This document shows positions 1 to 57,417 of a stretch of DNA of 57,417 bases, piece by piece. This DNA comes from a virus. Its lineage: Duplodnaviria > Heunggongvirae > Uroviricota > Caudoviricetes. The notes beneath the pieces were generated by a model that had not been told where the DNA came from, ran no database searches, and saw only the letters and a list, made by a program, of their open reading frames with translations. Position numbers and translations under genes: made by a program. How positions within the stretch are numbered: the first letter of the stretch is position 1; each line of letters begins with the position of its first letter. The stretch lies in IMG/VR virus record IMGVR_UViG_3300028454_000679; one strand, 5' to 3'.

Positions 1-134
1 TCGTAACTAACATTCTCTTTTAAATCGCCGTCAGCCGCAGCCTCTGCCTTATCTATTCGAACCTGCTCCAATTGCAATTGTTTAGCTTCCAGCTCTCGCT
101 CTAATGCTCTCTTTTTACCGATAGTTCCTCTCAT
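1..134 (-). CDS. greA: GreA/GreB-like transcription elongation factor, N-terminal part (runs off the left edge; absent from the ORF track)
   Basis: ATG at 134 with GGAGG RBS at 140-144. Translates to MRGTIGKKRALERELEAKQLQLEQVRIDKAEAAADGDLKENVSY, matching the GreA pattern T.EG...LE.EL...A...GDL.EN..Y including both acidic tip residues. Confidence 0.8.
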   Translation of the reverse strand, partial: MRGTIGKKRALERELEAKQLQLEQVRIDKAEAAADGDLKENVSY

Positions 135-145
135 ACTGTCCTCCA

Positions 146-838
146 CTATTTTCCTAAATTAAAAACTAGCCCACCTAGAGTAAAGGTAGACTCGTCAACT
201 TTCACAAAATCAAATTTCAGTAACTCATTGACTATTTGTGCATTTAAAACTCTCTGCTTGCACGCTGCAAAGCTACAATCATTCTCTGGCACATCTCTGT
301 GCATTTTTGACTTTTCTAAAAACCTACTATCATTTGTAGCATACAGAAGATTCAACCCTTCCTTGTCCAGAAGATAGACTTCATTGTAGACCCAGTTCAA
401 ATCACTAGGTACAGTCTTGGTTCCCTGCACGCAAACAATAACTCTACCCGCTGTAGAGCTAAATGCTGTAACATCTAACAGTAAGTACCCTTTCTTATGT
501 AACTGTGTCACATTGTAGAAAGATTTCTCACCAAGGGCGAGCACTAAATTGTCAGTAACATAAAACTGAAAACCACCAGCTGTTGCTTTACAGTAAACCT
601 CGGAATACTGACAATCCTCATTGCAGTAATACAACTTTCCATGAATAGGAAACAGATTTGCATTTAGCTGACCATTAGCCCTCAAGCACGGAAAGAATGC
701 ACCCTGATACCTACCCTTTACAAGTAGGCTTTCGAGTGCCTTAGGAGCAACATCCCTAGGCACTCGCATAAATTCCTTACCATCCATAACTGTGATGGAC
801 CCTTCATCAGTTCTCACAACTGTTAGACTCATTCTCAC
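146..838 (-). CDS. hypothetical protein
   Basis: 230 aa ORF tightly packed in the minus-strand run; no motif recognised. Confidence 0.75.
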   Translation of the reverse strand: MRMSLTVVRTDEGSITVMDGKEFMRVPRDVAPKALESLLVKGRYQGAFFPCLRANGQLNANLFPIHGKLYYCNEDCQYSEVYCKATAGGFQFYVTDNLVLALGEKSFYNVTQLHKKGYLLLDVTAFSSTAGRVIVCVQGTKTVPSDLNWVYNEVYLLDKEGLNLLYATNDSRFLEKSKMHRDVPENDCSFAACKQRVLNAQIVNELLKFDFVKVDESTFTLGGLVFNLGK

Positions 839-1340
839 ACACCTTCAATAATTTATGTAACACAAGGTACCTTCCAACATAAACGAATGGGAGTGAACCC
901 AATGCTGAAGACGCTATAACAACTAATGTACTGTCATCCAAAGTAAACCCTTCATAAAAGTAAACACCATATGTTGCGCCAGCCACTGAAAGATTCATTG
1001 CAAACAGTACGATGAGTAATGGAAACAGAAATGGTTCTGACGGTAATTGTAGAATTGTAAACAGAACAAGAATACCTACAAACACACAATAAGTCACAAA
1101 CAGAAATTTCCTAGGAATTCTATCCCTCTCTGTAATTGTTAGCATACCATCTTCAAAATCATCACCCAATTGTAAGTACAAGTATGAATTGTACACTGGC
1201 ACAAATGCAAACTTTGAATCAATACCAAAGTAACTTAAGCAACTCTTCAGTTCCATGCAAAATGCGAGGTACTGTATAAGTATTAACAGCAAAGCTATAA
1301 ATGCTATAAAGATTGTGACTAGGTCTATACTCTGATTCAT
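807..1340 (-). CDS. multi-pass membrane protein (DUF5684-like)
   Basis: About 4 hydrophobic segments; FAFVPVYNSYLYLQLG resembles the W.WIP..N.Y motif of this family. GGAG RBS before MNQSID. Confidence 0.65.
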   Translation of the reverse strand: MNQSIDLVTIFIAFIALLLILIQYLAFCMELKSCLSYFGIDSKFAFVPVYNSYLYLQLGDDFEDGMLTITERDRIPRKFLFVTYCVFVGILVLFTILQLPSEPFLFPLLIVLFAMNLSVAGATYGVYFYEGFTLDDSTLVVIASSALGSLPFVYVGRYLVLHKLLKVCENESNSCEN

Positions 1341-55337: not shown

Positions 55338-55342
55338 AAAAT

Positions 55343-56737
55343 TTAACCCTCTACCTGGCTTACCATATCTGAAAACAAATTAGCAGACGTGAAGACACCA
55401 CTTCCCATCTGAGAAGCTGCTGCAGGCTGAGAACCATCCTGCACTGTGACTTCCTCCGCAAGGTCAGCCTTAGTTACTGGAGCTTCTGCAGCTGCAATAT
55501 CATTATCGGAAGCATTTGCAGTTGCTCTAGCAATACGAGCATTACCGCTCTCGCCAAAGGCTTCAGAGATAAACTGGGCATTCTTAAGCACAATTTTATC
55601 AGTCAATAATGGTTCGTTAATATCAAAAACAGTGTGGAAAGCTTCAATAAAAGCACAATCCTCTGCTTCACCATAAGACCGTACAAAGGATGAAGCTCTT
55701 ACCTGCTGCTCGACATTCTCGCCCTCATCAATAACATCACGAATATATCCAGACAGTTTAGCGTAGCACTGTGTATCCTTGATACGATTTGCCGGAATAG
55801 TGAACGAGGTGTTAATAACATTATTACCTGGGTCCTTAGTAGAACATGTCAAATCCAACTCTACAAAGTTCGGTGAGCAAATAAGATGATTGTAACTACC
55901 ATCCAAGTAAAGCTGCAAAGCCTCACTAAGTGCCTTGGTTAAGTTCGTAATCTTAAGCATACTGGAAACACCATCTTTTGTATCCATCTTAGCATCTGCT
56001 GAAATACTGAATGTGTTTGTCAGAGGTACTTCAAAGAGCAGCACCCAGTTAGATGCCTTCAAACCTGACATAGGTATAGCCTGTTTAAAACTCTGCTTAG
56101 CCTCCGTAAACGCCTTCTCAGCAATATTAGGATTCTCTTCCTTTAAGCGTTTAACTCTCTCATGGAAAATATCATTAAACAAGTTATACCCTCTAAGAAT
56201 AGCTGGCAACTCACCAACAGCGTTACCCATATCATCATACTCCACATGTACCTCATACTGTGTACCATAGCGGTTATTGCTGTTAGTAAATGCTGCGATG
56301 GAGCAGTTTACTGTAGGCAGCGAGAAAATACGTGGAACCCAGTATGGGCGGAATACAGCGAAGTCAGTTTCATTGATATTCTCTGTATCAGAGGTATCCC
56401 ATTCCTTGATACCTACGTTGTTCATAAAGGCACGTTTTGCTTCCTCGTTATCGTTAGCAAAACCCTTTAACACCTTAGCAGTGGACTCTGCTGAGAAAGT
56501 AGGACGGAACTTGTTATCAGCATTGTACTGATCATCCGGCTTTCCTGTGGTTGGGTTAAACGGAACGGCATACTCCATTTCCACAAGAACCTTACTCTTC
56601 TTCTTTTCTTCTTTCTTCAGGCGCTCGAAACGATTTACAAAGTTACGTCTCTGTGCATTCTCATTTCTCATATTGAGTGCACTTTTTCCATTGTTACCTG
56701 ACTGCATTGCTCTTAATAATTCTTCTCTTGTCTGCAT
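55343..56737 (-). CDS. hypothetical protein, candidate ssDNA-binding protein (gp32-like position and acidic tail)
   Basis: Between primase and Rad50/Mre11; low-complexity acidic/Ala C-tail ending SGVFTSANLFSDMVSQVEG; own terminator. The SSB call is inferred from context. Confidence 0.45.
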   Translation of the reverse strand: MQTREELLRAMQSGNNGKSALNMRNENAQRRNFVNRFERLKKEEKKKSKVLVEMEYAVPFNPTTGKPDDQYNADNKFRPTFSAESTAKVLKGFANDNEEAKRAFMNNVGIKEWDTSDTENINETDFAVFRPYWVPRIFSLPTVNCSIAAFTNSNNRYGTQYEVHVEYDDMGNAVGELPAILRGYNLFNDIFHERVKRLKEENPNIAEKAFTEAKQSFKQAIPMSGLKASNWVLLFEVPLTNTFSISADAKMDTKDGVSSMLKITNLTKALSEALQLYLDGSYNHLICSPNFVELDLTCSTKDPGNNVINTSFTIPANRIKDTQCYAKLSGYIRDVIDEGENVEQQVRASSFVRSYGEAEDCAFIEAFHTVFDINEPLLTDKIVLKNAQFISEAFGESGNARIARATANASDNDIAAAEAPVTKADLAEEVTVQDGSQPAAASQMGSGVFTSANLFSDMVSQVEG

Positions 56738-56813
56738 AATTTTCTTTTTCCTTTCCTGAATAAACTGAGAGTTCTTTTAACTCTATATTTTTATAGATGA
56801 CTGAAGTAAATTC

Positions 56814-57417
56814 CTAAGTAACCAAATTCAAATGCTTAGCCATTACTTCTCTCACCTGTAATGCTTTGTCTGACTTAAATGCTTCATCCACATCCTTAAA
56901 CTCTTGGAAGTAAACAACATCAAGAGGTAGTGAAGCATTTCTTAATTTATTCCTTACCCTGATTCCCGCCTCATCATTATCCATAGCTAAAATAACTTTA
57001 GGGAATAATCGTAGCTGTGCAATCATAATAGGTGTCACAGTAGAGCCTAAAAGTGCACCAACGTTACAATGCATGTTCTCATGGACAGAGATAGCATCGA
57101 AGACACCATCAGTTATAACAATAGGCTGTTCCAGATTTATAAAGGGATTCACTGGGGTGTAAAGGAAGTTACCCTTTTGACACACTGATTTATTTGAGTA
57201 TGCATAGTAGTTTCCTTGTAGACCATTATGTACATCGAGGTAAACAAATGGGTTGAATGAAACAAGTCCTCGAGGAACCCCCATCGTGTCCAAGAGTGGT
57301 AAAATCATATGGCCAACCCAAATACACTCACCCCTAAAGTACAATCCAAAGTCATCTGTAAGACACTCTGGTGGTGCAAAGTACTTTAGATACTCCTGAT
57401 TCGGCACAAAGATGCTG
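56814..57417 (-). CDS. dnaG: DnaG-type primase, Toprim domain (5' end outside the window)
   Basis: PIVITDGVFDAIS, GALLGS, VILAMDNDEAG, KDVDE; the frame stays open to the window edge. Confidence 0.8.
   Translation of the reverse strand, partial: SIFVPNQEYLKYFAPPECLTDDFGLYFRGECIWVGHMILPLLDTMGVPRGLVSFNPFVYLDVHNGLQGNYYAYSNKSVCQKGNFLYTPVNPFINLEQPIVITDGVFDAISVHENMHCNVGALLGSTVTPIMIAQLRLFPKVILAMDNDEAGIRVRNKLRNASLPLDVVYFQEFKDVDEAFKSDKALQVREVMAKHLNLVT

Follow-up and report, generated by a model that had tools for sequence, protein, structure and literature searches.

Gene organization of the window

The question raised by this locus, a 57,417-nt stretch of DNA (the window), is whether it belongs to a phage, a plasmid-like element or a bacterial chromosome. 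The window was tiled by 53 ORFs of at least 80 aa, covering 97.4% of its length, and all 53 lie on the minus strand, as do all features given below by window coordinates; a preliminary description, made from the sequence alone, had likewise noted approximately 55 co-oriented genes. The GC content ranged from 0.37 to 0.41 (approximately 39%), and the GC skew, which had been put forward for checking, was negative along the whole length. Scans of the window detected no tRNA and no Rfam family. In Pfam and PHROGs scans, approximately 70% of the proteins had no family, and neither virion nor housekeeping families were seen, in agreement with the earlier remark that virion genes and housekeeping synteny are missing.

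Parent contig, relatives and hosts

The window proteins matched letter for letter those of a metagenome contig, ERZ27247021 k141_88331, of 234,325 bp, and the window makes up the middle 57 kb of a larger element of at least 234 kb. Gene content of this parent contig refers to record positions 65-180 kb; over these 115 kb, all called genes were on one strand. Homologs of the VirB4-like protein described below numbered 66, on contigs of up to 292 kb, and the family was found on contigs of 200-330 kb. The window was collinear with two relatives, G001:C1 (310 kb) and G003:C1 (229 kb), at 22-45% identity, and a Paraclostridium bifermentans assembly contains a 292-kb contig with an identical module order. 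Thus, the large size that was to be verified was observed in both the parent contig and its relatives (229-310 kb). As to circularity, neither G001:C1 nor G003:C1 had a terminal overlap; a 63-bp inverted repeat lies close to both ends of G003:C1. In G001:C1, the genes of a 100-kb arm are oriented the opposite way and lack homologs in G003:C1.

Assemblies containing relatives were labelled Lachnospiraceae, Oscillospiraceae, Clostridium, Wujia and Paraclostridium, and shorter scaffolds of the family occurred in a named Lachnospiraceae strain. One relative came from a Hadza human-gut sample, and the name Lapin given to one MAG suggests a rabbit source. Judging from MAG binning, the P. bifermentans assembly and the named Lachnospiraceae strain, the hosts are probably Clostridia. 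Core genes of the relatives included those for sortase, signal peptidase S26, Hsp70 (also encoded by the parent contig), NAD ligase, a PBP and an SLH/MBG surface protein.

Two findings had been named as arguing against a new element, namely that its genes are the sole chromosomal copies or that it belongs to a known plasmid or phage family. The rpoC, dnaE/polC and dnaN genes of the host genomes were located on contigs other than the element. No close relative was found in INPHARED, PLSDB or IMG/VR, with no match in the first and a best match of 24% identity in the last, and markers of Inocles and Hodors (see below) were not found. Both relative contigs, covered over their whole length, gave no gene for a terminase, a capsid, a PF03432 relaxase, Rep_3 or DnaE, and no tRNA.

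Replication and repair genes

The replisome of the element centres on a family-A DNA polymerase (DNA_pol_A, 1,288 aa), which is located on the parent contig together with DnaB, an SNF2 helicase, RNase_T and a CHC2 zinc ribbon separate from the Toprim primase. DnaE/PolC, which had been proposed as a search target, was not found on the element contigs. The Toprim-domain primase (56814..57417; Toprim_2, E 2.3e-11) is cut at its 5′ end by the window; it is complete on the matching contig with 242 aa and conserved in G001:C1 and G003:C1. The adjoining 464-aa protein (55343..56737) had no match in Pfam, PHROG or PDB and an ortholog of 30% identity in G001:C1 (E 1e-61). An AAA+ clamp-loader subunit of 361 aa, DnaX/delta'-like (36247..37332; DNA_pol3_delta2, E 9.6e-12; AAA, E 1e-9), and a flap endonuclease/5′-3′ exonuclease of 337 aa (40245..41258; 5_3_exonuc_N, E 2.4e-11) were identified, and PHROG clamp-loader matches were present among the G003:C1 ORFs (best E 6.6e-29). 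An NAD-dependent ligase gene is present in the relatives.

The element also encodes a recombination/repair set consisting of UvrD, a RecJ-type DHH protein, SbcC/Mre11 and NERD. The SbcCD/Mre11-Rad50-like block (51295..55267), with orthologs in the relatives, comprises an SbcC-type ATPase head (54242-55267; AAA_23/AAA_15, Walker A at residue 30), an Mre11-type phosphoesterase (53239-54291; Metallophos), a 102-aa protein, a possible PCNA-like clamp of 328 aa (51951-52937) and a conserved 219-aa protein (51295-51954). It is followed by a UvrD/Rep-type SF1 helicase of 756 aa (47941..50211; UvrD-helicase, E 1.4e-36; UvrD_C, E 2e-22; 36% identity to the G001:C1 ortholog) and a DHH-family, RecJ-type phosphoesterase of 514 aa (46394..47938; DHH, E 5.2e-7). 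Among the G003:C1 ORFs taken together, one PHROG match was to RecJ-like ssDNA exonuclease (E 2.8e-38). The NERD nuclease (4263-4796; E 2.3e-15) belongs to a stretch (146..4796) that also holds a conserved 253-aa protein (3091-3852; 43% identity in G001:C1) and small or membrane proteins.

The primase, DnaX-like protein and flap nuclease of the preliminary description were thereby backed by Pfam, as were its UvrD, RecJ and SbcCD. Its clamp is at most hinted at by non-significant PCNA matches (E 0.28-0.84), and no DnaC-like gene could be identified in the window.

Transcription genes

The parent contig encodes a fused β-β′ RNA polymerase, in answer to the earlier call for a search for these subunits. 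It is a single chain of 2,459 aa with the Pfam domains RNA_pol_Rpb2_45, Rpb2_6, Rpb1_2, Rpb1_3 and Rpb1_4 and an intact catalytic motif, NADFDGD. Approximately 75 clusters of this element-type enzyme were found, on contigs of up to 333 kb, with chains of approximately 2,450-2,900 aa in the family. A 206-aa homolog of the RNA polymerase α N-terminal domain, without an α-CTD, is encoded at 39115..39735. Pfam gave no match for it; its family profile matched solely RNA polymerase α in PDB (E 5.6e-4 and 2.6e-3), and the 50 best listed Foldseek matches of its AF2 model (pLDDT 67.8) were all to RNA polymerase α or RNA polymerase complexes, the alignments spanning approximately 225-250 columns versus chains of 206-314 residues. 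Positional orthologs were present in G001:C1 and G003:C1. A GreA-like transcript-cleavage factor starts at window position 134, with the first 44 of its 154 codons inside the window (1..134); the complete gene on the matching record (13719-14183) carries PF03449 (GreA_GreB_N), and the P. bifermentans locus has GreA at the same position. The RpoA-like and GreA-like assignments made from the sequence were therefore borne out. Together with a sigma-like protein of the parent contig (weak Sigma70_r4 match), these genes provide the element with an RNA polymerase core of bacterial type.

Envelope and putative transfer module

A conserved envelope/transfer module (18081..36250) was syntenic in G001:C1, G003:C1, L013-L017 and L054. 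Its genes encode, in order, proteins of 143 aa, 1855 aa (N- and C-terminal TM), 503 aa (4 TM), 1412 aa (approximately 7 TM), 217 aa and 345 aa (2 TM), a 414-aa ATPase, a 413-aa coiled-coil protein, a 659-aa VirB4-like protein and a protein of 95 aa. The giant proteins had no match in Pfam or PHROG. The VirB4-like ATPase (18370-20349) likewise had none in Pfam; its AlphaFold model (mean pLDDT 77.5) had TrwK/VirB4 as top Foldseek matches, with a better match to full-length VirB4 (E 2e-15) than to HerA (E 2e-9). In the 414-aa ATPase (21583-22827), a Walker A motif is present and the matches are to proteins of the MinD/Get3 class (E 0.009-0.5), so it may be CpaE/MinD-like.

On its two sides the module is bordered by ATPases of the PilB/GspE and FtsK/SpoIIIE types, the latter (FtsK_SpoIIIE) encoded on the parent contig. 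The former (T2SSE, 44156-45724; Pfam E 3.6e-28; best PDB matches PilF/GspE/PilB, E 5e-21) opens a stretch (42258..45724) that continues with proteins of 82 aa, 142 aa (N-terminal hydrophobic helix) and 401 aa (one TM segment). G003:C1 has two PHROG pilin matches. In P. bifermentans, a 986-aa Glucosaminidase/M23/Amidase_2/NlpC-P60 protein is encoded directly after VirB4. The relaxase family PF03432, listed for checking, matched solely on other contigs and not on element contigs. Among the transfer proteins named in the preliminary description, VirB4 held by fold, PilB by Pfam and PDB, and the wall hydrolase, called VirB1-like there, as an NlpC/P60 protein; the CpaE-like ATPase received weak support.

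Surface and probable cargo genes

Cell-wall/surface genes (4845..11457; NLPC_P60, HRDC, Big_2) encode a 1066-aa secreted NlpC/P60 hydrolase, an HRDC protein (7936-8238), proteins of 422 and 193 aa and a Big_2 membrane protein. They adjoin a putative lineage-specific cargo island (11545..17989) encoding, according to Pfam, a radical-SAM activase-like Fer4_12 protein, a TatD DNase and three HipA_C kinase-domain proteins. These genes had no counterpart in G001:C1 or G003:C1, and they were missing among the genes called at the corresponding position in P. bifermentans.

Comparison with known systems

ICEBs1 (ConE/ConQ/CwlT), pCW3 (TcpF/TcpA/TcpG) and pCF10 (PrgJ/PcfC/PrgK) are Gram-positive conjugation systems. 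The element resembles them in having VirB4, an FtsK-like coupling ATPase, a multi-domain peptidoglycan hydrolase adjoining VirB4, a large polytopic membrane protein and a putative surface adhesin. It differs from them in that its VirB4 is below Pfam detection, MinD-class and PilB/GspE-type ATPases are added, and PF03432 was not found. Jumbo phages of the phiKZ and AR9/PBS1 types carry multisubunit RNA polymerases in which β and β′ are fragmented and α is lacking. Like these, the element has its own β/β′-type enzyme and hence may not depend on the host RNA polymerase. However, its enzyme is one chain with ordinary bacterial Pfam domains and is accompanied by an α-NTD homolog and GreA, and, unlike in the phage systems, no virion genes were found.

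Inocles are giant extrachromosomal elements of oral Streptococcus (Kiguchi et al. 2025, PMC12340149). They are similar in their length of hundreds of kb, a majority of genes of unknown function, ORF orientation following GC skew, DNA-repair and replication genes, VirB4, sortase, signal peptidase S26 and a bifunctional PBP, and they are also missing from plasmid and phage databases. They differ in GC content (24-32% versus 39%), in host (Streptococcus versus Clostridia) and in having a Pol III α subunit, whereas the present family has a family-A polymerase; their marker InoC (Replic_Relax) was not found in the genomes of the relatives, and no RNA polymerase is mentioned in the Inocle paper (PMC12340149). 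Hodors are conjugative megaplasmids of more than 300 kb from human-gut Bacillota (Yuan et al. 2026 preprint, PMC12934698). They and the element, probably likewise of gut Bacillota, lack TerL and for this reason were at first taken for huge phages; also in common are VirB4, a barely recognisable VirB6, sortases, giant S-layer/MBG surface proteins and the lack of a canonical relaxase (PF03432 for the element). The defining features of Hodors are Rep_3, ParA/ParB/ParM, a SecYEG module and a protein longer than 7,300 aa, and no RNA polymerase is mentioned for them (PMC12934698); Rep_3 was absent from the genomes of the relatives, and the largest ORFs of the present family, of approximately 2,750 aa, are the RNA polymerase.

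Bacillus velezensis US1 and B. amyloliquefaciens have 215-kb plasmids (NZ_CP076292.1 and NZ_CP071971.1) that are closed circular molecules with nearly all their genes in one direction. Their VirB4-like protein is a distant homolog (22% identity), and its gene surroundings are similar, with a C40 peptidase, a glucosaminidase, a 2,023-aa protein, AAA ATPases and FtsK. Further genes on these plasmids encode a T2SS/T4P-family ATPase, a toprim protein, an AAA ATPase with a metallophosphoesterase, a helicase, DHH, DnaB, a DNA polymerase and LigA. They differ in their host (Bacilli), in having ParA and ParB, and in that, over the 185 kb covered (up to record position 150 kb and from 181 kb), a sigma factor but no RNA polymerase subunit was annotated. 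MOB-suite classes the Bacillus cousin plasmid as non-mobilizable.

Nature of the element

The window is best explained, with a probability of approximately 60%, as part of a self-transcribing, self-replicating giant plasmid-like element of Clostridia with a type IV-like transfer apparatus. An own RNA polymerase, a family-A polymerase, an HNH gene and genes in one direction are typical of large phages. All are found here, as are DnaB/primase, SbcCD, a flap nuclease, PHROG replication families and the large share of proteins without a family; according to the Hodor paper, similar elements were initially gathered under the name "huge phages" (PMC12934698). A jumbo phage or phage-plasmid is thus a credible though unlikely alternative, with capsid, portal and packaging genes too diverged or non-HK97; the FtsK/HerA-VirB4-class ATPases would then package the genome, and the giant proteins would be virion or injection components. 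Virion genes could go unnoticed among the core proteins, as the majority of these could not be assigned to any family. However, Terminase_6N and HK97 capsid profiles had no match on the element contigs, although prophages elsewhere in the same genomes were detected, and the families listed by a PHROG scan of 199 of the 213 ORFs in the 229-kb relative were confined to replication, nuclease, partition and pilin. The closeness of the 659-aa ATPase to VirB4 rather than HerA, the core genes for sortase, signal peptidase, PBP and Hsp70, the results from INPHARED and IMG/VR, and the finding of the element in strain assemblies (P. bifermentans and the named Lachnospiraceae strain) also argue against a virus.

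The element may instead be plasmid-like without being conjugative, its VirB4, MinD, PilB and FtsK proteins and giant membrane proteins serving the cell envelope as a surface structure, pilus, protein-secretion or DNA-uptake device. We regard this as rather improbable. The missing PF03432 relaxase, a secretion ATPase of the PilB/GspE and not the VirB11 type, the pilin-like matches of G003:C1 and the sortase, signal peptidase, PBP and SLH/MBG genes are consistent with it, and a large number of cell-surface genes is seen in Inocles and Hodors as well. However, a VirB4 fold, an FtsK-type ATPase and a multi-domain wall hydrolase directly after VirB4 make up the core set of conjugation in ICEBs1, pCW3 and pCF10, and the spread of the family over Lachnospiraceae, Oscillospiraceae and Peptostreptococcaceae points to horizontal transfer. 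From the presence of these three components we infer conjugation, and the proposal of a poorly characterised conjugative megaplasmid or phage-plasmid lineage of gut or rumen Clostridia is supported to that extent. A chromosomal origin (integrated island, chromid or misassembly) is very improbable. In its favour, the opposite-orientation arm of G001:C1 could be chromosomal or a join, and the contigs sit in MAG bins. Against this, no tRNA, rRNA or ribosomal-protein matches were found in the window or the 229-kb and 310-kb relatives, the host rpoC, dnaE/polC and dnaN are on other contigs, and several independent assemblies gave contigs of 229-310 kb with a common collinear core.

For the giant plasmid-like element, the one-way genes and the G-rich coding strand suggest that replication and transcription are co-directional, and both would proceed from one origin region. 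The stretch at 4.8-18 kb, with the HipA kinases, TatD and the radical-SAM protein, would be lineage-specific cargo. The results suggest a widespread family, with no earlier description found in databases or among the Inocle and Hodor papers. Its members would transcribe themselves, at least partly, with their own RNA polymerase and may move between cells by means of a type IV secretion apparatus of a diverged Gram-positive kind, in which FtsK would be the coupling ATPase, VirB4 and PilB the energisers, the hydrolase the enzyme that breaches the wall and the giant proteins the adhesins.

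Genome context and gene organization

The proteins of the window were found, identical letter for letter, on a metagenome contig of 234,325 bp (ENA, ERZ27247021 k141_88331), hereafter the own contig, as well as on five 0.2–1 Mb contigs of other samples. By coordinate arithmetic, the window corresponds to positions 106,193–163,609 of this record, reverse-complemented. The own contig was examined through exact-protein look-ups at positions 65–180 kb, and all genes called there lay on the same strand. Those before the window encode, in order, a 2,459-aa β-β′ RNA polymerase (RNAP), an HNH endonuclease, a 1,288-aa family-A DNA polymerase, an RNase_T exonuclease, a 697-aa FtsK/SpoIIIE protein and a NERD nuclease; those after it encode GreA, an SNF2 helicase, DnaB, Hsp70, a CHC2 zinc-ribbon protein and a 167-aa Sigma70_r4-like protein.

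The window was tiled end to end by 53 ORFs of at least 80 aa, which covered 97.4% of the bases, and all 53 were on the minus strand, confirming the co-oriented layout of the preliminary description. GC content was 0.37–0.41 and GC skew was below zero in all 2-kb bins, indicating that the coding strand is G-rich throughout the window. No tRNAs, Rfam families or notable repeats were found in the window.

Pfam searches of the window identified a Toprim primase, an SbcC-type ATPase head with an Mre11-type phosphoesterase, UvrD, a RecJ-type DHH protein, a T2SSE ATPase, a 5′-3′ exonuclease and a DNA_pol3_delta2/AAA clamp-loader subunit, in agreement with the primase, SbcCD, UvrD, RecJ, flap nuclease and DnaX calls made earlier from the sequence. 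Other matches were a radical-SAM Fer4_12 protein, TatD, HipA_C proteins (n = 3), an NlpC/P60 domain within a 1,066-aa protein, HRDC, Big_2 and NERD. Some two thirds of the window proteins matched no Pfam family. PHROGs, searched with 20 window proteins that included those of 1,855 aa (the largest ORF) and 1,412 aa, gave no functional match except to Ig domains. The 1,855-aa protein also had no match among phages by tblastn, a 464-aa protein had none in profile and PDB searches, and a 413-aa protein matched coiled coils only.

Three earlier assignments fared less well. For the 328-aa clamp candidate (51951–52937, inside the SbcCD block), the best PDB sequence matches were indeed sliding clamps, archaeal PCNA, but they were non-significant (E 0.28–0.84); no beta-clamp family was matched on the element contigs of relatives. 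The 414-aa protein described as CpaE-like has a Walker A motif, but its matches to the MinD/Get3 class were weak. The DnaC-like gene was not found in the window.

The motif S-x-[V/I]-F was observed within the last 14 residues of 6 of the 53 window proteins (36247–37332, 13953–14963, 12749–13909, 11545–12414, 7936–8238 and 2178–2723), against 0.66 expected from internal windows. This tail was not enriched in the two relatives with large contigs (1/280 and 0/213 proteins) and is therefore lineage-specific; one idea is that it serves for docking to a clamp or another partner.

Transcription and replication genes

The 2,459-aa protein of the own contig contains Rpb2_45, Rpb2_6, Rpb1_2, Rpb1_3 and Rpb1_4 domains, that is, both β and β′, and keeps the catalytic NADFDGD motif. 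Its gene lies outside the window, ending about 34 kb upstream, and its presence supports the proposal that the element is autonomous. Roughly 75 clusters of such proteins, 2,400–3,000 aa in length, were found, with scores far above those of ordinary or fused bacterial β-β′; on these sequence scores, the fused polymerase appears to form a family of its own. One cluster member is on a Hadza-named 239-kb contig, where it adjoins genes for a PBP, a ligase, an HNH protein and a family-A polymerase.

Matches to the fused polymerase in PLSDB and INPHARED were all ordinary rpoB/rpoC, at about 25% identity. A 214.8-kb Subdoligranulum variabile entry of PLSDB (OY725880.1, "plasmid: 46") was considered as a relative and rejected: rpoB and rpoC are distinct genes there (78429–99824), and the large ORFs after them have the sizes of fusA and tuf and resemble a chromosomal rps/fusA/tuf stretch. 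The entry resembles a piece of chromosome deposited under a plasmid label.

The RpoA-like call concerned a 206-aa protein (39115–39735) for which two very large homolog searches returned only four relatives; it evolves fast. When positional orthologs were included, all PDB matches of its profile were RNA polymerase alpha chains (E 5.6e-4 and 2.6e-3). A fold model built on a thin alignment (n = 7 sequences) had a pLDDT of 67.8, and all 50 top structural matches listed were RNAP alpha or RNAP complexes, with TM about 0.5 over approximately 225–250 columns. Profile and model thus bear out the call, and the protein is a predicted alpha homolog with the alpha-subunit N-terminal (assembly) domain. 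The GreA-like call also held, as a 154-aa GreA_GreB_N protein is encoded on the own contig by a gene starting at window position 134. The 167-aa protein had a weak match to Sigma70_r4.

For replication, where the preliminary description had asked after DnaE/PolC, a family-A replicase was found instead. The relatives have in common a second, shorter PolA-like protein, located between FtsK and NERD; in the 310-kb relative contig (G001:C1) it is 594 aa long (L041:9471–11255) and matches DNA_pol_A with E 2.6e-8, under the Pfam cut-off. Judged by position, a 579-aa gene product of the own contig (L004:8269–10008) is probably its ortholog. In the host genomes, host copies of rpoC, dnaE/polC and dnaN are present on contigs other than those of the element.

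Type IV-like secretion and envelope genes

The 659-aa VirB4-like protein had no match in Pfam. Its AF2 model (13 homologs, mean pLDDT 77.5) was most similar to full-length TrwK/VirB4 of R388 (E 2e-15, about 620 columns), as the earlier VirB4 call would predict, and gave a TM of 0.7 with the C-domain of Thermoanaerobacter VirB4 (4ag5); HerA and TrwB ranked lower (E 1e-9 to 1e-8). PF01935 was present in two homologs. From this model, the protein is a predicted VirB4-family ATPase of Gram-positive type IV secretion. The other secretion ATPase was placed by PDB matches in the PilF/GspE/PilB class, as first described, and not with VirB11. No PilC, pilin or prepilin peptidase family was matched in the window (Pfam, PHROGs); the gene of this ATPase is followed by one for a 142-aa protein bearing a hydrophobic helix at its N-terminus, and the 229-kb relative contig (G003:C1) had two PHROG "pilin" matches.

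A relaxase and VirD4 were among the functions to be checked. The 697-aa FtsK_SpoIIIE protein, encoded 4.4 kb upstream of the window and kept in G001:C1, would be the coupling ATPase (VirD4 or FtsK/TcpA type), but no relaxase was found: PF03432 (MOBP) matched only other contigs of the host genomes, never element contigs, and no relaxase family occurred in the Pfam results of the window or among the genes called at 65–180 kb of the own contig. A peptidoglycan hydrolase is represented by the NlpC/P60 domain of the 1,066-aa protein, and in Paraclostridium bifermentans a Glucosaminidase/M23/Amidase_2/NlpC-P60 hydrolase is encoded directly 3′ of VirB4. Between VirB4 and the wall hydrolase of the window, an island at 11545–17989 encodes a radical-SAM activase-like protein, TatD and three different HipA_C kinase proteins.

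Relatives and their hosts

Homologs of the VirB4-like protein formed 66 clusters, on contigs of up to 292 kb, with a Lachnospiraceae MAG and P. bifermentans (assembly GCA_054767995.1) as named sources. A scan of species-representative genomes detected relatives in five assemblies: a Lachnospiraceae MAG (310-kb contig, G001:C1), the named strain Lachnospiraceae bacterium 47-T17, an Oscillospiraceae MAG named Lapin (229-kb contig, G003:C1), a Clostridium MAG and a Wujia MAG (250-kb contig). PLSDB, INPHARED and IMG/VR contained no close relative; the VirB4-like protein had no tblastn match in phages, and a scan of IMG/VR with UvrD gave one match, at 24% identity.

In G003:C1, one strand bears 199 of the 213 ORFs. 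G001:C1 is divided into converging arms, 100 and 210 kb long, between which the GC skew changes sign. Neither contig contained tRNAs, and the biggest ORF of each is an RNAP (2,752 aa in G001:C1 and 2,755 aa in G003:C1). The core block of the window is collinear with both, at 22–45% amino-acid identity, in the order primase, UvrD, RecJ, PilB, flap nuclease, clamp loader, giant-protein/VirB4 module, HRDC, NERD and a 253-aa protein; on the 292-kb contig of P. bifermentans, the modules are arranged in the order seen in the window's element. The region at 4.8–18 kb of the window had no counterpart in either relative contig, except HRDC in the 310-kb contig, and its genes are cargo. Only 33 proteins, also collinear, were common to G001:C1 and G003:C1. 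Apart from window genes, this shared set contains the fused polymerase, the family-A polymerase, the second PolA-like protein, FtsK, SNF2, DnaB, Hsp70, the CHC2 protein, signal peptidase S26, a sortase and an NAD ligase.

The 100-kb arm of G001:C1 (1–100 kb, L030–L034) has the opposite gene orientation, a strong positive GC skew and a sigma-70 gene; no homologs of it were found in the 229-kb relative, and possible explanations are a second replichore and a join. G003:C1 (228,842 bp) is bordered at each end, 14 nt inward, by a 63-bp inverted repeat with 98% identity (L018:14–76 and L029, the last 76 bases of the contig). It may stem from a repeated insertion sequence at which the assembly broke off, which we consider likelier than a real telomere.

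Plasmid-like or viral nature

The earlier remark that no virion genes are visible was upheld in Pfam and PHROG searches. PF03237 (Terminase_6N) and PF05065 (HK97 capsid) had no match on the element contigs, and prophages on other contigs of the same genomes were detected by the same families. Among the PHROG families listed for 199 ORFs of G003:C1 and 20 window proteins, none was structural or for packaging; those of G003:C1 were polymerase, primase, helicase, clamp loader, RecJ, exonuclease, HNH, FtsK, thymidylate synthase, partition and "pilin". A virus whose virion genes are unrecognisable is nevertheless conceivable, since most core proteins of the element have no assigned fold, and we consider it unlikely. 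We favour a plasmid-like element whose type IV apparatus is a diverged Gram-positive one, because of the fold of VirB4, the FtsK ATPase and hydrolase that accompany it, the sortase, signal peptidase and PBP genes together with surface proteins with SLH/MBG domains, and the presence of the element in strain assemblies. The absence of a relaxase in the PF03432 and Pfam searches counts against this plasmid-like reading.

That such an architecture exists as a plasmid is shown by NZ_CP076292.1, a closed circular 215-kb plasmid of Bacillus velezensis with a like one-direction layout, a similar gene repertoire and a distant VirB4-like homolog in a neighbourhood similar to that of the element. Nearly all of its genes are on one strand, and it also carries a CBASS pair (SAVED and a DncV-like cyclase), a Rap protein, several YopX genes, topoisomerase subunits and a small acid-soluble spore protein gene.

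Comparison with Inocles and Hodors

Compared by description, Inocles and Hodors are the closest described kinds. Inocles resemble the element in size, in having mostly genes of unknown function, skew-linked orientation and repair genes, and in VirB4, sortase, signal peptidase and PBP (PMC12340149). By their description, they differ in Pol III, GC and host (PMC12340149): Inocle GC is 24–32%, against 0.37–0.41 in the window, and the Inocle host is oral Streptococcus, whereas the relatives of the element are in Lachnospiraceae, Oscillospiraceae, Clostridium and Paraclostridium assemblies. InoC carries a Replic_Relax (PF13814) domain (PMC12340149); PF13814 had no match in the genomes of the five relatives, nor in control genomes.

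Like the element, Hodors belong to gut Bacillota, lack TerL and carry VirB4, sortases and giant surface proteins; they are defined by Rep_3, ParABM, SecYEG and a conserved surface protein of >7,300 aa, next to which lies one of about 2,600 aa (PMC12934698). None of Rep_3, ParABM, SecYEG or the 7,300-aa protein was found for the element: Rep_3 (PF01051) had no match in the genomes of the five relatives and did match control genomes, and the largest ORFs were 2,752 aa in G001:C1, 2,755 aa in G003:C1 and 1,855 aa in the window. A literature search for a family with its own RNAP turned up only the Inocle and Hodor papers; neither fits, and RNA polymerase is mentioned in neither (PMC12340149, PMC12934698).

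Biological meaning

The observations of the preliminary description were confirmed, and its inference of a large, poorly characterised conjugative-megaplasmid or phage-plasmid lineage is supported. We file the element as a giant extrachromosomal element of Bacillota, set apart by a conserved transcription core (alpha homolog, fused β-β′ and GreA) and a PolA-based replisome. Members of the family are 200–330 kb in size, and the clusters number at least 66 for VirB4 and roughly 75 for the RNAP. With a probability of about 0.45, slightly short of even, they would represent a deep and widespread lineage of capsid-less bacterial replicons, distinct as a class from Inocles and Hodors, whose conserved core includes a complete bacterial-type transcription machine (alpha homolog, fused β-β′, GreA and a sigma-like factor) with a family-A replisome; these would be semi-autonomous "plasmids" spreading via a type IV-like apparatus.

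To our knowledge, plasmids depend on the RNA polymerase of the host, and we know of a multisubunit RNA polymerase of their own among bacterial mobile elements only in jumbo phages; transcriptional and replicative semi-autonomy of this grade is so far familiar to us only from large viruses. If truly capsid-less, the element would make the boundary between plasmids and viruses less sharp. It would also be a third kind of giant element in gut Bacillota, beside Inocles and Hodors, and a natural system for studying how a second RNA polymerase coexists with that of the host, a question that the relatives in two strain assemblies open to experiment.
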